Source: a virus
IMG/VR virus record: IMGVR_UViG_3300027714_000005
Length of the DNA stretch: 64,000 bases
Strand: one strand, 5' to 3'
The notes beneath the pieces are model-generated. The model made no database searches, was not told where the DNA came from, and saw only the letters and a program-made list of their open reading frames with translations. Below, in pieces: positions 3,939-36,086 of the stretch. A program made the translations under genes and the position numbers. The first letter of the stretch is position 1, and every line of letters begins with the position of its first letter.

Positions 3939-4994
3939 ATGAAGGTCGCCATTCTAAACGACACACACGCAGGGTGTCGCAATTCCTCTGACATTTTTAT
4001 GGCATATCAGGAACGCTTCTATAGTGAAGTGTTCTTTCCATATCTGTTAGAGAATAATATTAAACATATCTTACACTTGGGTGATTACTACGATAACCGT
4101 AAGACAATCAACTTCAAGGCACTGCAACACAACCGTAAGATATTTCTAGAACCTATGCGTAAGCATGGTATTACTATGGATATAATTCCTGGCAATCATG
4201 ACGTGTACTACAAGAACACCAATGAGTTGAACGCACTGAAGGAACTACAAGGTCACTACATGAATGAAGTGAACCTCGTAATGGAACCATGCGTCATTAA
4301 CTACGGTGGAACTGATATGGCATTGATTCCTTGGATTAACCCTGAGAACGAAAAATCAACACTTGAGTTTCTAAAGAACACCAAAGCAACACTTGTGGGC
4401 GCCCACTTGGAACTGGCAGGTTTTGAGATGTCACGTGGTCAGGTATGTATGGACGGTATGGACAAGAGTGTGTTCGATAGATTCGAGACTGTTCTGACTG
4501 GCCACTTCCATGCCAAGTCTAGTATGGGTAACATCCATTACCTTGGTGCTCAGATGGAGTTCTTCTGGAACGACTGTGGTGACCCTAAACACTTCCATGT
4601 GCTTGATATGGAAACGAGAGAACTAACACCTGTTCGTAATCCGATTACTATCTTTGAGAAGATTTACTACGATCACGAGAACATGGCAAAGTTCCAAGAC
4701 CTCTCTTATCTTGACAATAAGTTTGTGAAGGTTATCGTTACTAACAAGGGTGACGCATACGATTTCGAACGATTCATTGATCGGGTACAATCACAGAAGA
4801 TTCATGAACTGAAGATTGCTGAAGACTTCAAAGAATTCACTGGTGAGAACGTTGCGGACACGGTGTCGGTCGAAGATACCGAACAGTTGGTAATCAACTA
4901 CATTGACGCTGTTACTACTGACCTAGATAAGTCACGTATTAAACGAGAGGTGTCTAGTCTAATGACTGAAGCACAGAGTATGGAAATTGTATGA
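3939..4994 (+). CDS. 47: recombination endonuclease gp47 (Mre11/SbcD-like)
   Basis: DTH, LGD, GNHD, GHFH metallophosphoesterase motifs; synteny. Confidence 0.95.
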   Translation: MKVAILNDTHAGCRNSSDIFMAYQERFYSEVFFPYLLENNIKHILHLGDYYDNRKTINFKALQHNRKIFLEPMRKHGITMDIIPGNHDVYYKNTNELNALKELQGHYMNEVNLVMEPCVINYGGTDMALIPWINPENEKSTLEFLKNTKATLVGAHLELAGFEMSRGQVCMDGMDKSVFDRFETVLTGHFHAKSSMGNIHYLGAQMEFFWNDCGDPKHFHVLDMETRELTPVRNPITIFEKIYYDHENMAKFQDLSYLDNKFVKVIVTNKGDAYDFERFIDRVQSQKIHELKIAEDFKEFTGENVADTVSVEDTEQLVINYIDAVTTDLDKSRIKREVSSLMTEAQSMEIV

Positions 4995-5245: not shown

Positions 5246-6961
5246 ATGATAAAATTTCAGAAACTACGATTCAAAAACTTCCTGTCTACCGGCAACAACT
5301 TCACCGAGGTTGAGTTCGACAAGACCCCTACCACTCTGGTTATAGGACAGAACGGTGCGGGTAAGTCTACTATGTTGGATGCCCTGTCGTTTGGTCTGTT
5401 CGGTAAACCACACCGGAAGATATCCAAGGGTCAGTTGGTTAACACCATTAATGGTAAGGGTACTCTTGTAGAGGTAGAGTTCGGTATCGGTACACAGGCA
5501 TATAAGATTGTGCGTGGTATCAAACCTAATCGATTCGAGATATGGGTTAACGATAACATGGTTAATCAAGATTCTCATGCCAAAGAGTATCAATCGATGC
5601 TTGAGAAGAACATCATCAAGTTGAACCACAAGTCTTTTCACCAGATTGTTGTACTGGGATCGTCATCCTTTGTACCGTTCATGCAGTTGGCTGGTGGTTC
5701 TAGACGTGAGGTAATCGAAGACCTACTCGACATCAATATGTTCAGTAAGATGAACTCTCTGTTAAAAGAGAAGGTGTCTATACTCAAAGACCAGATAGCA
5801 AACAACTCCCATCAACTAAATCTTGTTGATACCAAAATCAATGCACAGAAGAAGTATCTCCGTGACCTGAGTGCGATATCCTCGCAACAGAAGAAAGAGA
5901 AACTTGACAACATCAAACACTTACAGGAAAACATCCGCAAACTCAATAACTCTAATGAGTCACTTACCAATGCAATAACGACATACGAAGTTCTCGGTGA
6001 CCAAGTTGATAAGAATACTGAGGAGTTGAATAAACTTAATGAGTTTGCCGCACAGTTTAAGGTACAACAGAAGCAAATCGTCAAGCAGGCAAAGTTCTAC
6101 GAGAATACTGACTTGTGTCCTACGTGTGACCAAACGATTGACAAGAAGTTAAAAGAGTATCATCTCAATACGTGTAAGACCAAGGCGGGTACTATCGCAT
6201 CTGCGTTGGAGATGCATTCTCTCCGTAAGGAACAACTTGACGCAAAGACCGCTGAGTTGAATCTCAAGTTGTCAGAGATTCGTGAATGGCAGTCTACTAT
6301 TCGTGCAAACGCTCAGGAGATTGGCACACTCAACCGTAACATTGACGGACTCAATAGTGACATCACTCGTATTGATAATGAGAGTGGTGACCTGTCTGAA
6401 GCGAACTCTGAGTTAGAGACTCTACGTACCGACAAAGAAGAACTCCAAGACTCCAAGTATAAGCTGAACGAACAGGGTTCATACAACCAAGTCTATAGTG
6501 AGTTGTTAAAAGATACTGGTATCAAGACTAAGATTATTAAACAGTACCTCCCAGTCATCAACCAGTTGACTAACAAGTACTTACAGATTCTAGACTTCTT
6601 TGTACACTTTGACTTAGACGAGAGTTTCCAAGAGACTATCCGTTCACGTCATCGTGATGCCTTCTCTTACGATTCATTCAGTGAAGGTGAGAAGCAACGT
6701 ATAGATTTGTCCCTACTATTCACGTGGAGACAGATTGCGAAGATGAAGAACAGTGTTGCGACCAATCTACTAATCCTTGACGAGACCTTTGACTCGTCTC
6801 TGGATGAGGACGGTATTGAAAACCTCATGAAGATTATATCAACATTGGGTGAGGATACCAACGTGTTTGTTATCTCCCACAAGAGTGAACTCGAAGATGC
6901 CGCATTCCAGCGCAAGATAGAGTTTGTAAAAGAGAAGAACTTTAGTAAAATTAAAGCTTGA
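5246..6961 (+). CDS. 46: recombination ATPase gp46 (Rad50/SbcC-like)
   Basis: GQNGAGKS, CPTC zinc hook, FSEGEK signature, LDE Walker B. Confidence 0.95.
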   Translation: MIKFQKLRFKNFLSTGNNFTEVEFDKTPTTLVIGQNGAGKSTMLDALSFGLFGKPHRKISKGQLVNTINGKGTLVEVEFGIGTQAYKIVRGIKPNRFEIWVNDNMVNQDSHAKEYQSMLEKNIIKLNHKSFHQIVVLGSSSFVPFMQLAGGSRREVIEDLLDINMFSKMNSLLKEKVSILKDQIANNSHQLNLVDTKINAQKKYLRDLSAISSQQKKEKLDNIKHLQENIRKLNNSNESLTNAITTYEVLGDQVDKNTEELNKLNEFAAQFKVQQKQIVKQAKFYENTDLCPTCDQTIDKKLKEYHLNTCKTKAGTIASALEMHSLRKEQLDAKTAELNLKLSEIREWQSTIRANAQEIGTLNRNIDGLNSDITRIDNESGDLSEANSELETLRTDKEELQDSKYKLNEQGSYNQVYSELLKDTGIKTKIIKQYLPVINQLTNKYLQILDFFVHFDLDESFQETIRSRHRDAFSYDSFSEGEKQRIDLSLLFTWRQIAKMKNSVATNLLILDETFDSSLDEDGIENLMKIISTLGEDTNVFVISHKSELEDAAFQRKIEFVKEKNFSKIKA

Positions 6962-7702: not shown

Positions 7703-7921
7703 ATGATGGCAAAACCCAACAAAGCAGAACGAGACCACACATCAATGTACGAACTGGGTAACCGAGTTGCCCGTTCATCAGTCGCGGTGATCGATACCGT
7801 AGTACAACGTGGTGGATTCAAGGGAGAAGAACTCTCTACCATTGGTCAATTACGTGACCAAGCAGTTCAGATTATCCAACTCTGTGAAGAGTATCAGTCT
7901 GAACAATCTGTTGACGAGTGA
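7703..7921 (+). CDS. hypothetical protein
   Basis: IDTVVQRGGFKGEELSTIGQLRD; RBS GGAG upstream. Confidence 0.7.
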   Translation: MMAKPNKAERDHTSMYELGNRVARSSVAVIDTVVQRGGFKGEELSTIGQLRDQAVQIIQLCEEYQSEQSVDE

Positions 7922-24832: not shown

Positions 24833-24925
24833 ATGAGTGATTTATTATTTTATATTAAGTGGGGAATAATCGGGTTTGTAATCGGTTGGCCCATTGGTTA
24901 CGCAATAGGAACATATATTTTATGA
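24833..24925 (+). CDS. 30-aa hydrophobic peptide
   Basis: MSDLLFYIKWGIIGFVIGWPIGYAIGTYIL; stop overlaps fabF ATG (ATGA). Confidence 0.4.
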   Translation: MSDLLFYIKWGIIGFVIGWPIGYAIGTYIL

Positions 24926-26085
24926 AAGATAGAGTAGTGATTACTGGTGTTGGTTTGGTGGACACACTCGGAACATATCCAATGGAGTGTTTTGAGAACA
25001 TGATCAGTGATCACTATGAACACCCAGTTGATTTTAAGACAGATATAGAGTCTCTCAAAGGATTGGTGTGTTTCAAGTCACGTGATGTGAACTATACGAT
25101 TCCAGATGGTATTCGTAAACCAGTCTTCGGTTCTCTATCAACAGCATCTAAAAACGCTCTTCATGTTGTACAACAGGCAATGGGAGATATCGACAGTACC
25201 GATGTCGCGGTTGTATTCAGTTCGATTGCAGGAAAGGAAGGTGTTAGGAATACAGACTTCTGTAATAAGATGGAGGGTGGTAAACGACTATCCCCCCGAA
25301 CTGCTGTACAGTATCTGAGGGACTTCTCCGCAGGGGTAATCAGTCAGACATTCGACTTCCGTGGTGCGTGTGTCAGTATGGATGCCGCTTGTGCGACTGG
25401 ACTGTACTCTATTGATTATGCAATACACCTACTGGACACACATAGGTTTGTTATTGTTGGTGGGACAGATAATCCTGCTATGGATGATAATATGTTCATC
25501 TTCAGTCAGTTGGGTGCGCTTGGCACTGCGTCAAAACCCTTTGATAAGAAACGTGATGGGTTCGTCATGGGCGAAGGTGCGGGTGCCTTGTTATTAGAGA
25601 AAGAGTCTGAAGCACGGTTACGTGGCGCAAACATCATTGGGTACATTAACACTGTGTCTCACCATTCAGATGGTGCACTTGGTGCACCTACTGCACCAGA
25701 CCCAAACAGTACGGGATCAATTGCGTCCATGACATCTGTCACCCAGAATATAGTTGGGGATGTTGCCTTTGTTAACGCACATGGTACATCAACACCAATG
25801 GGAGATGACCTAGAGTACAATGCGATTCAGGAAGTCTTACCCAAAGTTCCGGTGATTAGTTTCAAGTCAAAGATTGGACACTCTCTTGCGGCCAGTGGTA
25901 TCAATGAAACAATCTATAGTCTGTTGTGTCTCTATAACGGGGTTATACCGAAGAACTTTAATATAGATGAGTGTGACCATGAGTTTGTTTATAAATACAA
26001 GCATCGATTGACAAGTAAAATTGCTGTGAAGAACTCGTTCGCATTTAGTGGAAGGTCTTCGTCACTAGTTCTGGAGGTAGAATGA
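24922..26085 (+). CDS. fabF: beta-ketoacyl-ACP synthase (FabF-like)
   Basis: RVVITGVG, catalytic AAC, PFD..RDGFVMGEGAG, NAHGTST, KSKIGH, NSFAF. Confidence 0.9.
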   Translation: MKDRVVITGVGLVDTLGTYPMECFENMISDHYEHPVDFKTDIESLKGLVCFKSRDVNYTIPDGIRKPVFGSLSTASKNALHVVQQAMGDIDSTDVAVVFSSIAGKEGVRNTDFCNKMEGGKRLSPRTAVQYLRDFSAGVISQTFDFRGACVSMDAACATGLYSIDYAIHLLDTHRFVIVGGTDNPAMDDNMFIFSQLGALGTASKPFDKKRDGFVMGEGAGALLLEKESEARLRGANIIGYINTVSHHSDGALGAPTAPDPNSTGSIASMTSVTQNIVGDVAFVNAHGTSTPMGDDLEYNAIQEVLPKVPVISFKSKIGHSLAASGINETIYSLLCLYNGVIPKNFNIDECDHEFVYKYKHRLTSKIAVKNSFAFSGRSSSLVLEVE

Positions 26086-26795
26086 TAACTGAATATCTAG
26101 GTAAAAACAGTGGGTACGTACATACAATATTTTATATAACGTGTGTACTCTTTACTGTGTTGTGGGTGCCGACATTATCAGTTGTCGAGTTCTTAGTCTG
26201 GTTTGTCGGTGCTCATACTTTTGTCGGATATCTAGTCTCTGCTTTCCAACATCGATACTGTGCACATAAGAGTTGGCAACCGTCAAGGTTCGTTGAAATT
26301 CTCAGTGTTTTCCTGTGTGCCGGATTCGTGTTGATACCGAATATGGGATGGGCATCTGTTCACAAAAATCACCACAGATACACCGATACCGAGAAAGACC
26401 CACATGGTAATGTGCATAGTGTCTGGGATAACTTCATGGCGTTCAACATTGCCCCCTCGAAACATGGTTGGCCTCGATGGATGTTCCGTGACCTACTGTA
26501 CCTTTACCAATTAAAATACTATTGGGAAATTGCGATCCTCTTTGGGGCATTGATGTTTGTGATTGGTATTGGTGAACTATGGTTATCGACTATTGCTGTT
26601 GCATACATCTTCCAAGTCACTCTCAATATTGTAGGTCACCCAAATAGAAGTCCTGCTAATAGACCGTGGTTGGGACTATTATACAGTGGTGAACTATACC
26701 ACAAGAACCACCATGATAACCCCAGTCTATCTAGGTTTGGTTTGATCGATGTTCCATACCTTTTATTCATAAAGTTCTTAGATACCAAGAAATAA
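26082..26795 (+). CDS. membrane fatty-acid desaturase (delta-9-like)
   Basis: His boxes HRYCAH, HKNHH, HKNHH; DTEKDPH; TM helices. Confidence 0.88.
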   Translation: MITEYLGKNSGYVHTIFYITCVLFTVLWVPTLSVVEFLVWFVGAHTFVGYLVSAFQHRYCAHKSWQPSRFVEILSVFLCAGFVLIPNMGWASVHKNHHRYTDTEKDPHGNVHSVWDNFMAFNIAPSKHGWPRWMFRDLLYLYQLKYYWEIAILFGALMFVIGIGELWLSTIAVAYIFQVTLNIVGHPNRSPANRPWLGLLYSGELYHKNHHDNPSLSRFGLIDVPYLLFIKFLDTKK

Positions 26796-26798
26796 CGC

Positions 26799-26855
26799 TT
26801 GACAAGTGATGCATAATCTGATATAATACTTGTATTGATAATGAGAAGAGAGATT
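26799..26855 (+). promoter_or_regulatory. early promoter-leader, class B
   Basis: TTGACA-17-TATAAT-ACTTGTATTGATAATGAGAAGAGAG. Confidence 0.8.
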
Positions 26856-26858
26856 GTT

Positions 26859-27017
26859 ATGGTGTATTTAATCGTTGGTGGTTTGATGATGATGTTTGGT
26901 GTTGGTGGAATGGAGACTAACATGGATGCCTCGTTCCCTTTGGTCGAGTTTTTTGTTGCGTTGGTTGGTGTTCCTGTAGCGTTACACGGTGCAATGAAAC
27001 TTAATATGGAAGAATAA
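26859..27017 (+). CDS. small two-TM membrane protein
   Basis: Hydrophobic; start placed after leader RBS. Confidence 0.5.
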   Translation: MVYLIVGGLMMMFGVGGMETNMDASFPLVEFFVALVGVPVALHGAMKLNMEE

Positions 27018-27019
27018 CT

Positions 27020-27232
27020 ATGAGCAAGATGGGAACGTTTGTTTTACAAGTACAAGAGGTCGTTGAGAACAACGCCTTTCAAAGTTTTGATGTCGTAACG
27101 GATGCACTGGCAATGGAGTTTGCTGATACAGAACTGTTCGATTTCGCAAAAGAGATCGCTTATCAACAGTACGAAGAGATTCGTTCAGATATGGAGTCTT
27201 ATAGTGAAAACCAAAACAACCAAGAAAGGTAG
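27020..27232 (+). CDS. hypothetical acidic protein
   Basis: GGAG-like RBS; MSKMG..V..VQE. Confidence 0.55.
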   Translation: MSKMGTFVLQVQEVVENNAFQSFDVVTDALAMEFADTELFDFAKEIAYQQYEEIRSDMESYSENQNNQER

Positions 27233-27361: not shown

Positions 27362-27388
27362 AAATCGACTACTCAGTCGATTTTTTTT
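27362..27388 (+). terminator. Rho-independent terminator
   Basis: AAATCGACT-actc-AGTCGATTT plus T-run. Confidence 0.8.
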
Positions 27389-27418
27389 AATAAAATTTAC
27401 GTTTAAAACTTCAACTTG

Positions 27419-27426
27419 TATAAATA
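27419..27426 (+). promoter_or_regulatory. gp55 late promoter heading the csg/cyclase operon
   Basis: TATAAATA (T4 late consensus) between terminator and ATG 27432. Confidence 0.7.
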
Positions 27427-27431
27427 ACAAC

Positions 27432-27710
27432 ATGGATATACTAACCCTCATTTCAGAATTGGGGTTTCCTATTGCATCTGCCTTAATAGGTGGTTTCTTT
27501 ATGTTTCTGACACTAAAGTATATTATGGATGGTGTGATAGGTCAGGTGAAATCCCTCAAAGGGATCGTAGGTAGCCTTGATAATCGTGTCAAAACTATGA
27601 ATCATGATATGATTCGTATGGATACTACTATGTGTGTTGTTCTGGGAATAAGACCAGACCTCAATCGTATTAGTCGTGCAGACGGTAAGAACGATGCGAG
27701 GAGAGATTAA
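27432..27710 (+). CDS. YvrJ-like single-TM coiled-coil protein 1
   Basis: ISELGFPIA..TM..LDNRVKTMNHDMIR. Confidence 0.55.
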   Translation: MDILTLISELGFPIASALIGGFFMFLTLKYIMDGVIGQVKSLKGIVGSLDNRVKTMNHDMIRMDTTMCVVLGIRPDLNRISRADGKNDARRD

Positions 27711-28186
27711 TGATCGATCCAGTATCCGCAGTAATGACAGCAACTGCCGCATTCAATGGTATTAAGAAATTAGTAGAACGTGGTCAAGACATGGAACACA
27801 CGTTTACACAGATTGGCAAGTGGTACGGTGCCGTTAGTGATTTTAACGAAGCGAAGAGACAGGCGGAGAACCCTCCACTCTTTCGTAAGTTGATCAACAA
27901 GTCTTCGGTAGAAGAAGAAGCAATGAACATCTTCATCTCTAACAAGAAGATTAAAGAACAAGAGACCCAGTTGCGTGAACTCTTACTCTATTCCTATGGC
28001 CCCAGTGCATATCAGGAATTAACTCAGTTACGGAGAGACATCCGAGAGAAGAGGGAAAGGGACGTGTATGCACAAGCGAGGAAACGGAAGTCACTCTTCT
28101 GGAACGCCCTTGGTTGGACATCAGTACTGGTGTTAGGTTATGGATTCTTCATAGTATTTAAACTCATATATTCGAATATCCCGTAA
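27710..28186 (+). CDS. hypothetical helical protein with C-terminal TM
   Basis: MIDPVSAV..ATAAF.GIKK; coiled coil; C-terminal anchor. Confidence 0.6.
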   Translation: MIDPVSAVMTATAAFNGIKKLVERGQDMEHTFTQIGKWYGAVSDFNEAKRQAENPPLFRKLINKSSVEEEAMNIFISNKKIKEQETQLRELLLYSYGPSAYQELTQLRRDIREKRERDVYAQARKRKSLFWNALGWTSVLVLGYGFFIVFKLIYSNIP

Positions 28187-28434
28187 TGGATGTTGTATCA
28201 GTAGTTAACGATTTCGGTTTTCCGATAGTTGCGGCTGTCGGTATGCTTTATATGATTTACTTTGTGTGGAAGACCATTACAAACGAAGTCGAAAAGAACT
28301 TGTCCGAAACAATGACGGTGTTGATAGGTCTCATTGACCGTATCAGGATGTTGGATAATGATATAATTAGATTGCAACAGAAGTTAGACACCGCAATCGA
28401 AATGAGGAGAAAAACAGATGAAGAAGAGATATAG
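28186..28434 (+). CDS. YvrJ-like single-TM coiled-coil protein 2
   Basis: VNDFGFPIVAA..TM..LIDRIRMLDNDIIR; paralogous to 27432..27710. Confidence 0.55.
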   Translation: MDVVSVVNDFGFPIVAAVGMLYMIYFVWKTITNEVEKNLSETMTVLIGLIDRIRMLDNDIIRLQQKLDTAIEMRRKTDEEEI

Positions 28435-28903
28435 TTGGATACAACTCTTTGAGGGTACGTCACTGACAGTTGCGATGATTCTGATGATGTTGATAATCAC
28501 AGAAGTATCAGTTGCCGCACCCATAGAGCACAAATTCAAATCTCCTTCCTTCAGTGGTATTAATCAGTCTAGTCACTATTTGACGATAGAGAACCAAGAG
28601 ACCTCTAGGAAACAGGCGATAAAACAAGAGATTGAAGACCTCCAAGAACAACTGGAGAGGGACGCAGAGAATACTACTCTAGCAAAATTTATTAGGAATG
28701 TGGAATCACGTATTTACTCTACACTATCCAGACAGATCGTTGACGGTATGTTCGGAGAGAACCCAAGCGACACGGGTTCGTTTAACATCGAAGGTACGGG
28801 CATATCATACGTTACAGACGGTGATAACGTAATATTAACAATAACAGACGAGAACGGTAATGTCACGACTATTACTATTCCCCTTGGTGATTTTGGTATC
28901 TAG
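28418..28903 (+). CDS. csgF: curli assembly protein CsgF-like
   Basis: Signal peptide, F..PSFSG, F...ESRI...LS.QI...MFG, C-terminal G..T.I.IP; adjacent to csgG. Confidence 0.8.
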   Translation: MKKRYSWIQLFEGTSLTVAMILMMLIITEVSVAAPIEHKFKSPSFSGINQSSHYLTIENQETSRKQAIKQEIEDLQEQLERDAENTTLAKFIRNVESRIYSTLSRQIVDGMFGENPSDTGSFNIEGTGISYVTDGDNVILTITDENGNVTTITIPLGDFGI

Positions 28904-29660
28904 TTGTGCCAGTCTCGGAGGAGGTAATTTCGAGATACCAAGTGTGGAAGAACCGAAAGTACAACTTACTCTGTTACAGAAAGAGTTAAAGAATGTTTCG
29001 GAACCGACTAGGAAACCCACGGTGGCAGTGTATGAATTCACTGACCAGACGGGACAGAAGAGACAGAACAGTAGTGGCGGAACCTCATTCAGTTCTGCGG
29101 TTACTCAGGCACCCAATGTATATTTGATAAGAGCGTTGACACGTGCATCCAACGGAAACTTCTTCCGAGTGGTTGACCGTCAAATTATTGACCATGTGAC
29201 GAGGGAACGACAGTTAATCCGTCAAACCCGACAATCATACGAGGGAAACGACTCTCAGAAGCTGCCAGCACTCACTTTTGCTGGTATGATTATTGCAGGA
29301 GGTATAGTAGGGTACGATACCTCTGTTGACACAGGCGGAGCTGGTGCTAGATATCTTGGCATCGGTACTTCCCGTGAATATAGTAGAGACACTGTGACTA
29401 TCAATATTCGATTAGTGTCTGTGGCAACAGGTGAGGTTTTACTTGATGTGATATCAAGCAAGACCATACTCTCCACCGCTTTTGGCGGAGATGTGTTTAA
29501 ATTTATCGAACAGGGTACTGAACTGGTTGAGATTGAATCGGGCAGTACAAAAAACGAATCCGTTTCCATTGCAACACAAAGGGCGATAGAAGCGGGAGTC
29601 TTGGAACTTATACTGAGAGGAAGTAAGTATGGTTTCTGGACGCTTAATGGAGAGAAGTAA
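28860..29660 (+). CDS. csgG: curli secretion channel CsgG-like lipoprotein
   Basis: Lipobox VSSC; VAVYEFTDQTGQ, FSSAVTQ, ERQLIR, GGIVGYD..TGGAGARYLGIG. Confidence 0.92.
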   Translation: MSRLLLFPLVILVSSCASLGGGNFEIPSVEEPKVQLTLLQKELKNVSEPTRKPTVAVYEFTDQTGQKRQNSSGGTSFSSAVTQAPNVYLIRALTRASNGNFFRVVDRQIIDHVTRERQLIRQTRQSYEGNDSQKLPALTFAGMIIAGGIVGYDTSVDTGGAGARYLGIGTSREYSRDTVTINIRLVSVATGEVLLDVISSKTILSTAFGGDVFKFIEQGTELVEIESGSTKNESVSIATQRAIEAGVLELILRGSKYGFWTLNGEK

Positions 29661-29661
29661 A

Positions 29662-30396
29662 ATGAACGCAAAGCAAACGGGTGCGATTCCTATGTTCGCT
29701 ATGATGTTCGTGATTGGTGCTGTGTATGCAGACAATGAAATATATATTGATCAAGTAGGAAGTAGTACTGCTATCGAGATTATTCAAGATGGCAGTGGTA
29801 ACAAAATAGGTGGCGGACTCACTGATGAAACAAAGATGTTACTCAGTGGTGACGATATGGACATTAACTTAAACTTCAGTGGTTCTACGAACAACTTGAT
29901 TGGTTCCGTGATTGGTTCTAATTCGGTACTAGACGTAGACGTGACAGGGTCAGGTAACGACCTGTTCTTTGATGTTGATAAAGATAATGCCTATGGCGCT
30001 ACAGGCGGGAACTATCTTGTATCTATCACTGGTGGTAACAACGCAGTGGACTTTGATTTTGGTTCACTTGATACCGCAAACGATACGGACTTTGACTTTA
30101 TATTGGACGGTGATTTTAACACTGGCGATATAAACGTAGATGCATCTAGTCTTACATTCAACATGGATGTGATATCAGATAATTCCAATCTAGATTATTC
30201 GGCAACTGGTTATGATGGCCATCAGTTTATATTGACTGGTACAGGAAACTATTGGGACATTGATGTTGTCCAAGAGTCTACTCTACAGTCTGATTCTTTG
30301 GAGTTAAATTATGATGGTTCAGGAACAAGCACGACTGATGCTACTATTTGTATTGTTCAGTCTGACGGTGGTTTCGTCAACACTTGCGGCCAGTAA
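29662..30396 (+). CDS. curlin-like secreted beta-repeat protein (CsgA/B-like)
   Basis: Signal peptide ending VYA, DNEIYIDQVG..I.Q.G.GN, Gly/Asn/Asp/Ser-rich repeats of about 20-25 aa. Confidence 0.7.
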   Translation: MNAKQTGAIPMFAMMFVIGAVYADNEIYIDQVGSSTAIEIIQDGSGNKIGGGLTDETKMLLSGDDMDINLNFSGSTNNLIGSVIGSNSVLDVDVTGSGNDLFFDVDKDNAYGATGGNYLVSITGGNNAVDFDFGSLDTANDTDFDFILDGDFNTGDINVDASSLTFNMDVISDNSNLDYSATGYDGHQFILTGTGNYWDIDVVQESTLQSDSLELNYDGSGTSTTDATICIVQSDGGFVNTCGQ

Positions 30397-31429
30397 TGAC
30401 GTAGGTTTGGTTGACCGAGCAGTTGGATGGAGACAGATAGTAAGGAATGAACAACCCTTAGAACCCAATAAGGGTGAAGAGGTGATATCTAAGGACGACC
30501 TTCGCACAGGTGAGGGTCGTCTACAGGTACGATTCAGAGATGACAGTAAATTAAGAATGACCGAACACACACGTATTGTGATTGATAATATGGTGTTCGA
30601 TGATGACCCAAGCAAGTCTGCCTTGGCGATGACGTTTGCCCAAGGTACTGCGAGATTCATATCTGGTCAGTTGGGTAAGGTAGACAAAGAGAATATCAGA
30701 CTCAAGACCCCTACCGCATCTATCGGTATCAGGGGTACAGACTTCACAGTAACCGTTGATGAGTTCGGTAAGACGCTCGTGGTACTTTTGCCAGACGTTA
30801 ACGGAATCTCTTCGGGTGAGATTATTGTTTCGACAATGACAGGTGAAGTCACACTCAACAAACCTTTCCAGTCTACCACAGTAGACGTGATGGAGAACCC
30901 CCCTAGTGCGCCAGCAATCCTAGACCTTACTCTGGATATGTTGAACAACATTATGATTATCAATCCCCCTAAAGAGAAACAGTCTAAAGAAGACTTCATG
31001 GATACTATAAACGCATCCAAGGGCATTAGTTCGTTAGACGTGGACTTTCTTAACGAAGACTTGTTACAAGAAGAAGAACTTGGGAAAGACTATCTGGAAT
31101 TTAATGAACTCGACATCAACTACTTGGACGTTGACTTGTTAGAAGACCTACTGGATAATTTCGATTCTTTGGGAGAGGACGTGTTGCAAGAACAACAGTC
31201 TAGTGGCGACTTACGTATCGAAGGTACTGAAGAAGGGTTCGACCCAGTCACACAGGTTGCCACTATAGTAGAGGGCGACAAGGTGACGATACGCAGAGAG
31301 GTGAATGACAAGGTGTCTATCACGGTGGACAAGTCAGCTGCGACAGTTATAAGTATAGAGCAGGACGGTAAGGAACTAGAGACAATCAAACTTAATGGTA
31401 TCGACAACTTGATAAGTATAGTACAATGA
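30338..31429 (+). CDS. FecR-domain periplasmic protein
   Basis: D.LRTG.G...F.DDS, GTARFISG, TPTASIGIRGTDF; acidic linker; start 30311 or 30338. Confidence 0.85.
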   Translation: MLLFVLFSLTVVSSTLAASNDVGLVDRAVGWRQIVRNEQPLEPNKGEEVISKDDLRTGEGRLQVRFRDDSKLRMTEHTRIVIDNMVFDDDPSKSALAMTFAQGTARFISGQLGKVDKENIRLKTPTASIGIRGTDFTVTVDEFGKTLVVLLPDVNGISSGEIIVSTMTGEVTLNKPFQSTTVDVMENPPSAPAILDLTLDMLNNIMIINPPKEKQSKEDFMDTINASKGISSLDVDFLNEDLLQEEELGKDYLEFNELDINYLDVDLLEDLLDNFDSLGEDVLQEQQSSGDLRIEGTEEGFDPVTQVATIVEGDKVTIRREVNDKVSITVDKSAATVISIEQDGKELETIKLNGIDNLISIVQ

Positions 31430-33246
31430 AGACATGGCACGTATTCGTAACACTTGCGATACTGGTGGGACTGAGGTTACTTGACCCGTTCCTATTGGAG
31501 AGTACTCGACTGTCATTCTTTGACTCATTACAACGTGGTCAAGAGACCCAACTGTCCGAACAGATTGTCCTTGTTGATATTGACGAGGAGACTCTGGCAA
31601 AGTTTGGTCAGTATCCAATCCCCCGTAAGGTAATGGCCGATGAGATTGATAAGATAGAAGGTAGTCTTATTGCGTTCAACATTCTGTTCAGTGAACCTGA
31701 CAGGGCGGGTGGAGACGAATACTTTGCGGACATCCTATCGTGGAAGAATACAGTAGTTGCCATTGCACCGTCCAACAGAACCAACACAGACTACAGACCA
31801 CCCCGTATTGGAACCGCAACGTTCGGTGACAGAGATGCCGAAGACTTCCGACCTTTGGTGGAAGGTATGCTTTTTGCACAACCAGTGATACATGAAGCGG
31901 CACTTGGTTATGGAACTATCTCATCCGCACAGGACGTTGATGGTATCATCCGTAGACAACCACTACTAGAAAACTTTGACAACAGACTCTATCCCGCATT
32001 TGCGTTAGACGTATTGAGGGTTGCAGCCGGAGATTCGTCCTACCAGATATCAACAGACGAGTACGGTATTCAGTTTGTTCGTATTCCCAAGTTCACACCA
32101 ATACCCACAGATAGTCAGGGTAACGTTACAGTCGCATACTGGAATGAGTTCAAGAGATATTCCTTTACTGACCTCTCAAGTATACCAGAGGGGTCTATAA
32201 TCATCGTAGGCGGGAGTTACGCAGGTTCTAGTGTGGTTAGTACACCTATGGGTTCTATGTATCCGCATGACGTACAAGCAAATCTGGTCAAGACAATGAT
32301 CGGGGGTGTGACCATCGAACGACCCCCAGAATTTATTTTCTATGAGCTCTTGACAACTCTTGTATTATGTGGTATAATCCTAGCTCTTCTAGGGAAGGCT
32401 GATATACTAATTTCAGGAGTGTCGTATGTCATCATAATTGGTGGTATTCTGTATGTGGTCAACGAACTATTCAATACCCAGTATCTCCAACTAGACCCAA
32501 CATTCCCAATTATCACATTGACCTTGGTGTTTGCTCACGGTTCCTTTGTTCAGTTCTATGTACAGTTCAAAGCTAAACAACTTATTAAAGGACAGTTCGG
32601 TACGTACCTATCACCCGACATGGTAGATATGTTGGCCAAAGACCCCAGTCTACTGAAGTTGGGTGGAGAGAAAAAAGAGATGACATTCCTCTTCATGGAC
32701 ATTGTAGGATTCACCCCCATATCAGAACACTATAAAAACAAGGACGATGCGGAAGGGTTGGTTATACTCATTAATAACTACCTAAATGAGATGACTAATA
32801 TTATCCTAAATAACGGTGGAACCATAGATAAGTATATGGGTGATTGTATCATGGCGTTTTGGAACGCCCCCTTACCTTGTGAGAATCATGCTGAGATGGC
32901 AGTGAAGTCCGCAATAGAAATAGAAGAGAAGACAGATGAACTTAGACAGAGATACATTGCGGAAGGTTTACCACCGATTAACGTTGGAACTGGTATCAAT
33001 ACTGGGTCTTGTATTGTTGGTAATATGGGTAGTGAGTCACGGTTTGATTATTCAGTCATCGGAGACGCAGTCAACCTTGCCGCAAGACTTGAAGCAACTG
33101 CCGCAAGAGGAGACTATCTCGAATACAAAACTATCTACTCCAAAGCAACCAAAGACCAACTCATAGATATAGAGTCAAGTCCGATAGGACTCATTAAGGT
33201 AAAAGGAAAGGAAGAAGAAATTGAAATCTATACACATAATCGATGA
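31426..33246 (+). CDS. CHASE2-domain class III adenylate cyclase
   Basis: IVLVDIDE..L...GQYP.PR, DVDG.IRR, 3 TM, FMDIVGFT, DKYMGDC, GINTG, YSVIGDAVNLAARLE. Confidence 0.93.
   Translation: MKTWHVFVTLAILVGLRLLDPFLLESTRLSFFDSLQRGQETQLSEQIVLVDIDEETLAKFGQYPIPRKVMADEIDKIEGSLIAFNILFSEPDRAGGDEYFADILSWKNTVVAIAPSNRTNTDYRPPRIGTATFGDRDAEDFRPLVEGMLFAQPVIHEAALGYGTISSAQDVDGIIRRQPLLENFDNRLYPAFALDVLRVAAGDSSYQISTDEYGIQFVRIPKFTPIPTDSQGNVTVAYWNEFKRYSFTDLSSIPEGSIIIVGGSYAGSSVVSTPMGSMYPHDVQANLVKTMIGGVTIERPPEFIFYELLTTLVLCGIILALLGKADILISGVSYVIIIGGILYVVNELFNTQYLQLDPTFPIITLTLVFAHGSFVQFYVQFKAKQLIKGQFGTYLSPDMVDMLAKDPSLLKLGGEKKEMTFLFMDIVGFTPISEHYKNKDDAEGLVILINNYLNEMTNIILNNGGTIDKYMGDCIMAFWNAPLPCENHAEMAVKSAIEIEEKTDELRQRYIAEGLPPINVGTGINTGSCIVGNMGSESRFDYSVIGDAVNLAARLEATAARGDYLEYKTIYSKATKDQLIDIESSPIGLIKVKGKEEEIEIYTHNR
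32350..32378 (+). promoter_or_regulatory. internal consensus sigma70 promoter inside cyclase gene
   Basis: TTGACA-17-TATAAT with extended -10 TG. Confidence 0.65.
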
Positions 33247-33724
33247 TTTCCTAACACCCGAAGATTACGCGGAAGTTATGGAACTTTCAAAAGATATTCA
33301 TCTACACGAAGCTGAAGACTATTCTAAGAAGTATGGTACAAAGACTAACGACTATGCGTGGAAAACGTGGAATGGTTGTAGACGTAGTGACAACTATGTG
33401 GACTTTCTCGACTTTTTCAGTGATAAGGTCAACCTTCACTATAACGTAAAGATTTCTAGGTTAGAGTTCTTTACCCACCCCCTAGAGAAGTTTCCCATAT
33501 ACGAACAGGAGACTCAACAACACATCGATGCCTTGTTCGAGTTCTCTGGTGTCCTCTACCTTGACGAAGGTGCTGTAGGACTAGGTACTACAATTGGTAC
33601 TGAATATGTTGAGTGGAAACCCAATCGATTAGTGACATTCCCCGCATTAACCTACCACAATCCCCACTTTGGCGGAACTGAACGAACCGTTCTGACTTTC
33701 TTCTCTCATAAGAAAAAGTTATAA
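33221..33724 (+). CDS. 2OG-Fe(II) oxygenase-like protein
   Basis: IIDDFL, HID, GVLYL, NRLV.F...YH, R.VLTFF. Confidence 0.7.
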   Translation: MKSIHIIDDFLTPEDYAEVMELSKDIHLHEAEDYSKKYGTKTNDYAWKTWNGCRRSDNYVDFLDFFSDKVNLHYNVKISRLEFFTHPLEKFPIYEQETQQHIDALFEFSGVLYLDEGAVGLGTTIGTEYVEWKPNRLVTFPALTYHNPHFGGTERTVLTFFSHKKKL

Positions 33725-35048: not shown

Positions 35049-35117
35049 TTGACTTTACTACAAGAAGTGTGTTATAATACTTGTATCGAAACCAATAATG
35101 AAAAGAGAGAATATATT
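35049..35117 (+). promoter_or_regulatory. early promoter-leader, class B
   Basis: TTGACT-18-TATAAT-ACTTGTAT...AATGAAAAGAGAGA. Confidence 0.75.
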
Positions 35118-36086
35118 ATGAGCATGAATGACGTTTTACAAATTGAGACTATGGCTTACGCTGGCAAATCACCTTGGGGTGAGATTGGTACGCAAGTATC
35201 AAACGACCTATCCCCACAACAAATTATGACTAAGGCAGGTCTTGACTGGTCTGTCGAGAAAGTCCCGACCTTCGCAATCATGGGTGACGAACAAATCCCT
35301 ACGGGTCAGGAAGCACTTGTCCGGTCTTCGGACAAAAAGATTCTAACCCAAGTTGGTACGAATTGGCATCCTGTCCAGAACGAAACTGCGTTTGAGTTCT
35401 TCAACGACTTCTGTCTGGAAGGTGGTATGGAGATGCACACTGCGGGTTCACTAAAGGGTGGCAAAATGGTCTGGGCACTTGCCAAGATTAACGAGTCATT
35501 CGATGTGTTGAAGGGTGACCAAGTAGATTCCTACCTGTTGTTCTCCAACCCACACGAGTACGGTAAGTCAATCGATGTTAGATTCACACCAATCCGTGTT
35601 ACCTGTATGAACACCCTTGCGATGGCAATCAAAGGTTCTGCGGTTAACGGAATGAAACTTAACCACCGTAAGGCATTCGACCCTCGTAAAGTAAAAGAGA
35701 CTATGGGTATCGCACACGAGAAGTTTGAACAGTACAAAGATGTTGCTCAGTTCCTTGCGGGTAAGCAGTTCACTATGGACGCATTGATTCAGTACTACAA
35801 CAACGTGTTCCCTAGAACTTACCAAGGTAAGGAAACAGTCCAAGTCAAAACTGTTCAGGACTTGACATCGAACGGTCAGAAAGCGTTTGAGTTCTTGGAG
35901 TCACAGCCTGGCGCTGAGTTCGGAAAGGGTTCATGGTGGCAAGCACTTAACAGTGTGACCTACTTGACTGACCACCAGATGGGTCGTGAAGCAGATTCAC
36001 GTATGACTTCTGCATGGTTCGGTGTCAACCAGACTCGAAAGATTAGAGCAGTTGAAACAGCAGTCGAATTGGCGACTGCTCAATAG
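35118..36086 (+). CDS. DUF932 family protein
   Basis: AGLDW.V, PVQN..AF.F, TAGSL.GG..VW, TPIRV.C.NTL. Confidence 0.85.
   Translation: MSMNDVLQIETMAYAGKSPWGEIGTQVSNDLSPQQIMTKAGLDWSVEKVPTFAIMGDEQIPTGQEALVRSSDKKILTQVGTNWHPVQNETAFEFFNDFCLEGGMEMHTAGSLKGGKMVWALAKINESFDVLKGDQVDSYLLFSNPHEYGKSIDVRFTPIRVTCMNTLAMAIKGSAVNGMKLNHRKAFDPRKVKETMGIAHEKFEQYKDVAQFLAGKQFTMDALIQYYNNVFPRTYQGKETVQVKTVQDLTSNGQKAFEFLESQPGAEFGKGSWWQALNSVTYLTDHQMGREADSRMTSAWFGVNQTRKIRAVETAVELATAQ

Follow-up and report, generated by a model that had tools for sequence, protein, structure and literature searches.

The closest described relatives of the locus reported here are the pelagiphage type VIII secretion system (T8SS), or curli-type, regions. 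A csgFG cluster was reported in pelagimyophages (PMC7029224), a lysis role was proposed for the module of the Methylophilales phage Melnitz (PMC9004378), and the full region was described in podo- and myophages, including FecR and adenylate cyclase as putative regulators associated with the phage T8SS, together with the global distribution and metatranscriptome detection of its genes (PMC9599517). The modules are reported to constitute approximately 0.1% of assembled viral proteins in GOV2.0 and to be among the commoner auxiliary gene sets of marine phages (PMC9599517). Cultured carriers infect SAR11 and OM43, which are streamlined marine bacterial groups without curli genes. The stretch analyzed here (the window) is the whole 64,000 nt of the IMG/VR virus record IMGVR_UViG_3300027714_000005, and its positions 27419–33246 have the same gene set and order as the pelagiphage T8SS regions (PMC9599517; HTVC008M, KC465899; Melnitz, MZ577097), with 29%–50% protein identity. 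The window differs from them in its phage backbone, in a gene (p158) inserted between tm1 and tm2, and in a shorter cyclase (606 aa); in HTVC008M and Melnitz, moreover, fecR and the cyclase gene are separated by a further curlin-like gene that the window lacks.

The operon is a curli-type auxiliary module of marine T4-like and podo-type phages, carried here by a different T4-like lineage. The open reading frame (ORF) listing of the window gives eight ORFs on the + strand at 27432–33246, each abutting or overlapping the next, which encode, in order, tm1, p158, tm2, CsgF, CsgG, a curlin-like beta-solenoid protein, a secreted protein with a FecR domain, and a class III adenylate cyclase with a CHASE2 domain. 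All eight are present as claimed in an initial annotation made from the sequence alone, which also mentioned csgF/G operons in SAR11 myophage metagenomes. Every core protein of the module has its own PHROG family of unknown function. The initial annotation also proposed a complete relay from the cell surface to the cytoplasm; what stands of this is a coherent, co-inherited unit with intact catalytic residues and a promoter motif kept in position, while the trans-envelope relay itself is plausible only. The interpretation favored here, tentatively and at somewhat less than an even chance, is a late, single-unit curli-type module with a CsgG/F channel, an exported solenoid, and a FecR protein reporting to the CHASE2 domain of a cyclase that makes cyclic AMP (cAMP). 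FecR and cyclase have already been linked in print to the phage T8SS (PMC9599517), so this interpretation is a refinement and not a discovery. New relative to the available parts of PMC9599517, PMC7029224, and PMC9004378 are a bacterial copy of the core in Henriciella, the module specificity and non-kinase nature of tm1/tm2, the curlin-type end of the FecR protein, and the scarcity of cyclic nucleotide monophosphate (cNMP)-binding domains. The window extends a published, functionally unsolved system by one more lineage and a variant architecture.

The same gene order recurs in over 50 viral contigs as well as in Melnitz and the Pelagibacter phage HTVC008M, and the cyclase has at least 597 relatives in IMG/VR. 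The tm1, tm2, csgF, csgG, curlin, fecR, and cyclase genes were found in every viral locus with enough flank, including the neighborhood of fecR and cyclase beside csgFG on which the initial annotation had staked its proposal. Within the window's own clade (L004–L020, 70%–100% identity), fecR abuts the cyclase gene. The p158 gene (27710–28186, + strand) is limited to a few close relatives: apart from the window-identical fragment L003, it occurs only in L007, L009, and L019. It encodes a protein of 158 aa with a C-terminal transmembrane (TM) helix.

Bacterial loci were surveyed by a CsgG-profile scan of species-representative genomes, from which the best 80 loci were taken. Most of these are csgFG loci of Alphaproteobacteria in which neither FecR nor cyclase is encoded within 10 kb, among them the genuinely bacterial loci of Erythrobacter, Sphingomonas, Azospirillum, and others, and bacterial T8SS operons lack FecR and cyclase according to PMC9599517. 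About a dozen are short contigs or contigs of metagenome-assembled genomes (MAGs) with a phage-type module; most module-bearing “MAG” contigs also have tm1/tm2 and therefore look like phage contigs binned with bacteria. Two contigs (L106 and L143) lack tm1/tm2, yet their CsgG groups with phage sequences. The exception to the statement in PMC9599517 is a Henriciella MAG (L087), in which csgF, csgG, a gene for a 504-aa curlin-repeat protein, fecR, and a CHASE2 cyclase gene lie among ordinary chromosomal genes at uniform GC, without tm1 and tm2. This five-gene core was recovered in three independent assemblies, including the interior of a 190-kb TARA scaffold and a third contig. Its cyclase was found in only this one of 201 Henriciella-family genomes, with no copies in the other 200. 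The Henriciella CsgG falls on the phage side of a quick CsgG tree on a long branch. The Henriciella curlin homologue contains 19 G-x-x-N turn motifs, of which 11 belong to clear curlin-type repeats, and its length varies between the assemblies (504 aa at 7774–9288 of L087, 622 aa at 5981–7849 of L166, and 575 aa at 4051–5778 of L167), which suggests repeat expansion and contraction.

The module is preceded by both of the transcription signals named in the initial annotation. An intrinsic terminator at 27362–27390 (+ strand; hairpin 27362–27383) with a 9-bp stem, a 4-nt loop, and a T-run closes the upstream unit; relatives have a hairpin and T-run at the equivalent place with different stem sequences. 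The T4-type late promoter motif TATAAATA follows at 27419–27426 (+ strand) and ends 5 nt ahead of the tm1 start codon ATG. Of 61 loci, 42 have NATAAATA in the 80 nt upstream of tm1; its distance to the ATG is 4–8 nt in 28 and exactly 5 nt in 18. The position of the motif is kept, while the surrounding sequence and the terminator stems vary between loci, which supports TATAAATA as a functional T4-type late promoter. By textbook T4 late promoter geometry, the distance of only 5 nt to the ATG implies a nearly leaderless late transcript, a correction to the initial annotation.

The outer-membrane part of the module resembles that of E. coli CsgGF-CsgA/B and of alphaproteobacterial csgFG, with which it shares a CsgG lipoprotein, the channel-binding motif of CsgF, and a secreted Q/N-rich beta-solenoid subunit. 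The csgF gene (28418–28903, + strand) encodes a CsgF homologue (Pfam PF10614, 1e-17) with a signal peptide followed by the N-terminal pattern F-x-S-P-x-F-x-G, which reads F-K-S-P-S-F-S-G in the window; 64 of 120 homologues carry the broader motif F-x-[NSTD]-P-x-F-x-G. CsgG (28860–29660, + strand; Pfam PF03783, 4e-49) is an outer-membrane lipoprotein with the lipobox VSSC, and its Cys16 is near-invariant in the CsgG alignment; these matches and this residue bear out the earlier assignment of both proteins. Window CsgG groups in a phage-type clade of the quick tree, separate from bacterial CsgG. CsgE (PF10627) was not found in five related phage records, in a scan with a positive E. coli control that left the window itself outside. 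A CsgG pore ungated for want of CsgE could also be pictured as admitting nutrients or cofactors to the periplasm of a streamlined host, with FecR and CHASE2 sensing the import, as was raised in PMC7029224 and PMC9599517; this is very unlikely, since it leaves the conserved CsgF, the secreted curlin-like subunit, and the curlin-type tail of the FecR protein unexplained, and the phage FecR protein has no anti-sigma or TonB-transducer partner.

The gene downstream of csgG encodes a secreted curlin-like beta-solenoid subunit (29662–30396, + strand), recognized by its repeat motif and an AlphaFold2 model. The longest ORF starts at 29629, but the ATG at 29662, where its homologues begin, is the likelier start of the gene. 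In 41 curlin-like homologues, the signal peptide is followed by a single canonical repeat (N-E-I-Y-I-D-Q-x-G ... I-x-I-x-Q-x-G-x-G-N) and approximately seven G-x-x-N turns, and their C-terminal end reads I-x-I-x-Q-x-D. Compared with proteobacterial curli systems, the subunit is degenerate, as only the first repeat is canonical; the CsgE result for the five phages is a second difference. The AlphaFold2 model is an all-beta solenoid with a predicted local distance difference test (pLDDT) score of 83 and a predicted TM-score (pTM) of 0.77. A Foldseek search of the model against the Protein Data Bank (PDB) returned nothing at E <= 0.001, and the VIA wide structure search returned generic beta-helices at Z 16 (among them SufD/SufB, lyases, and tailspikes), with no CsgA chain among its top rows. 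The Pfam Curlin_rpt profile gave E = 0.027 against the 255-aa product of 29629–30396, under the cut-off. The curlin-like call of the initial annotation is kept here on the repeat motif and the solenoid model, for a protein that is a possible member of the curlin family. Like CsgF and the FecR protein, it opens with a hydrophobic segment resembling a signal peptide.

The FecR-domain protein of the module (30311–31429, + strand; Pfam PF04773, 3e-12; signal peptide) has the periplasmic beta-core fold of the FecR/PupR anti-sigma regulators, which act in TonB-dependent cell-surface signaling. Residues 59–218 match the PupR CCSSD (6ovk chain R, PupR 111–251) with Z 15.6 and a root-mean-square deviation of 2.6 over 137 residues; the Pfam match and the PupR fold agree with the periplasmic FecR protein named in the initial annotation. 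Unlike these regulators, the phage protein has no cytoplasmic anti-sigma domain, TM helix, or STN subdomain; their place is taken by the signal peptide and, beyond the core, by an acidic linker and a small beta domain at the C-terminus. Its model (pLDDT 74) is composed of a beta core at approximately 30–205, a conserved acidic linker at approximately 210–300 with low model confidence, and the C-terminal domain. The last strand is curlin-type (G-x-x-N ... I-x-I-x-Q; I-x-I-V-Q in the window protein), a tail motif shared by 62 of 64 FecR and 48 of 50 curlin-like homologues, compared with 0%–5% for four of the other five module proteins and 34% for tm2.

PMC7029224 and PMC9599517 proposed a module for fibers or adhesion only, with curli-like fibers for aggregation (“sibling capture”) or for a superinfection block and with FecR and cyclase loosely linked or separate. 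Two points agree with it: the unit encodes CsgF, CsgG, and a secreted curlin-like solenoid, and some podophage versions are without cyclase (PMC9599517). It is nevertheless unlikely in view of the curlin-type strand on the FecR tail, the translational coupling of fecR and the cyclase gene, which overlap by ATGA, and the fecR/cyclase order, which does not vary among the myophage-type loci examined or in the bacterial copy; moreover, Melnitz infections were described without clumping (PMC9004378).

Pairs of FecR and CHASE2 proteins are known from bacteria, as the initial annotation had stated. Campylobacterota have gene clusters that comprise a FecR-domain protein, a CHASE2 cyclase, a phosphodiesterase, and a TPR protein, in which the partner is a FecR-domain protein as in the window (PMC9239204). 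In Sinorhizobium (S. meliloti), the outer-membrane protein NsrA signals to CHASE2 cyclases, and with CyaD1/CyaD2/CyaK this provides a case of an inner-membrane CHASE2 cyclase signaled via an outer-membrane or periplasmic partner (PMC13001267; PMC7529298). The window differs from both in that its outer-membrane element is a CsgG channel with a fiber subunit, no phosphodiesterase or Crp-type receptor lies alongside, and the system is phage-borne with predicted late expression.

The CHASE2 class III adenylate cyclase of the window (31426–33246, + strand; 606 aa) matches PF05226 (CHASE2) at 3e-39 and Guanylate_cyc at 1e-18. A single TM helix precedes its CHASE2 domain, three more follow it, and the cytoplasmic catalytic domain comes last; the hydrophobic segments lie at 8–24, approximately 304–322, 329–345, and 359–375. 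Among PDB entries, the P. aeruginosa CyaB catalytic domain matches best (3R5G, 1.5e-36). Across 84 full-length homologues, little or no variation was seen at the metal residues D425 and D473, the adenine residue K469, and the transition-state residues N550 and R554, and the partner specificity position is Ser543, neither Asp nor Thr (80 Ser, three Thr, and one Asp in the same set). This conservation and the CyaB alignment are in line with the intact class III catalytic residues noted initially, and from the residues kept, the sequence predicts a catalytically competent adenylate cyclase. A complex prediction for the CHASE2 periplasmic domain (25–305) and the FecR core (29–215) scored 0.03, with a mark of 0.32, and weighs neither way. 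As separate observations, the cyclase gene contains a perfect sigma-70 consensus at 32350–32378 (TTGACA, 17 nt, TATAAT, and an upstream TG), where the TM helices after CHASE2 begin; six close relatives retain TTGACA and TATACT within the gene and more distant relatives do not, a conservation that is confounded by coding. An invariant Met419 and a GGAG-like stretch stand immediately ahead of the catalytic domain.

In the favored interpretation, the module would be transcribed late as one unit from the TATAAATA promoter, and CsgG and CsgF would form a channel through the outer membrane of a host that lacks one of its own. The curlin-like beta-solenoid subunit would leave through this channel, and the FecR protein would reside in the periplasm, where its C-terminal curlin-type strand may engage curlin subunits or the base of a fiber. 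By analogy with bacterial FecR/CHASE2 pairs, the FecR core may report to the periplasmic CHASE2 domain; the cyclase would then produce cAMP in the cytoplasm, and tm1 and tm2 may act with the cyclase at the inner membrane. We infer channel assembly, fiber formation, FecR-to-CHASE2 coupling, and cAMP output and its target from the proteins described above. If a surface fiber is indeed linked to cAMP synthesis, the module would be a phage-installed sensory organ altering the interactions of infected plankton cells, and it would offer a tractable model for CHASE2 signaling, whose ligands are, to our knowledge, not known.

Several points weigh against this interpretation. The curlin-like protein stays under the Pfam Curlin_rpt threshold. 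The absence of clumping in Melnitz infections (PMC9004378) counts here as well as against fibers alone. An hhalign comparison of the FecR family with the curlin-like family gave a probability of 5%, which is not significant, so the strand common to both is a short motif and not a shared domain. With regard to the output, no cNMP-binding domain was found in five related phage records (HTVC008M, Melnitz, and three large contigs), and only eight of 81 genomes of the Pelagibacter-MAG family have one; this scarcity of candidate receptors weighs against the cAMP output step in known hosts. Henriciella has four cNMP-binding domain matches.

A more specific arrangement, considered rather improbable, is that FecR acts as a tether through the pore. 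Its tail would join or nucleate the fiber beyond CsgG, the acidic linker of approximately 90 residues would lie in the channel, and the core would sit at CHASE2. If this were true, fiber assembly, load, or contact would translate directly into cAMP synthesis, which would make the five-gene core an autonomous envelope mechanosensor, in Henriciella as well; the phage version would be wired to tm1/tm2 instead of Crp. Canonical cAMP receptors are missing from most of the searched genomes of the known hosts' family.

The two small membrane proteins are paralogues. The tm1 gene (27432–27710, + strand) encodes a 92-aa protein whose N-terminus forms a TM helix (GFPI motif) and whose C-terminus forms a basic coiled coil (phrog_18771, 2e-31), and tm2 (28186–28434, + strand) encodes 82 aa (phrog_18771, 7e-27); the coiled coil of both is probably cytoplasmic. 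Among 50,697 phage records, tm1 is confined to six that carry the module. Both proteins are labeled histidine kinases in PMC9599517. This reading was rejected for proteins of 82–92 aa: the label is unsupported because there is no conserved His at a DHp-type position and no kinase domain. The sole His-rich column of the family alignment has His in one-third of the members, and histidine-kinase families were absent from the Pfam matches of 57 tm members. Judged by sequence, tm1 and tm2 are module-specific and not histidine kinases. In the viral loci L064 and L069, the order is tm2, csgF, tm1, csgG, with tm1 moved between csgF and csgG, so the arrangement of the two small genes can vary within the module.

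The architecture of tm1/tm2 is holin-like, and tm2 has a weak match to a holin PHROG (1e-4). A role in the timing of lysis, in which the CsgG(F) channel, perhaps with holin-like tm1/tm2, permeabilizes the envelope late and the cyclase and FecR set the time, was proposed for Melnitz (PMC9004378) and agrees with the late promoter motif on the unit. YvrJ is a further lead in the same direction: it was matched by three of 57 tm members, and an Atlas search gives it at 0.89, which serves as a lead only. The holin family phrog_4898, in turn, was matched by just four of the 57 (best E 1e-4). CsgG is placed in the outer membrane and not at the step that holins control, the secreted solenoid subunit is left without a role, and the five-gene core is carried by a free-living bacterium, where a lysis role is unlikely; timing of lysis is accordingly quite unlikely as the function of the module, and the reading of an exported solenoid signaling through FecR to the cyclase is preferred.

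Downstream of the cyclase gene, and overlapping its end, p167 (33221–33724, + strand) encodes 167 aa with no family found and no Pfam match. It adjoins the cyclase gene in most clade relatives with a flank long enough and is a possible ninth gene of the unit in the window's clade. By eye, its N-terminus (I-I-D-D-F-L) resembles cyanophage 2OG-Fe(II) oxygenases.

The window has the content of a T4-like replication module, with genes for a helicase, an SbcC-like protein, DNA polymerase, UvsX, a DnaB-like helicase, and ThyX, and the backbone also encodes NrdA fused to a thioredoxin-like domain. The DNA polymerase shares 61% identity with that of Phage C48C1 and approximately 47% with those of cyanomyophages, and no match to the region came up when 50,697 phage records were searched by megablast. 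The GC content of the window is 0.41, all of its ORFs of at least 200 aa (1–64000) are on the + strand, and no tRNA genes are present in it (1–64000). A DUF932 protein is encoded at 35049–36086. Just upstream of the operon, a tandem at 24859–26795 encodes a FabF-like ketosynthase (PF00109/PF02801) and a fatty-acid desaturase (PF00487), a pair typical of freshwater fonsimyophages, which are described as lacking the curli operon (PMC7029224); the window combines the two. Directly after the desaturase gene, a second perfect sigma-70 consensus with an extended -10 was found at 26799–26827, before the small ORFs 26835–27017 and 27020–27232.

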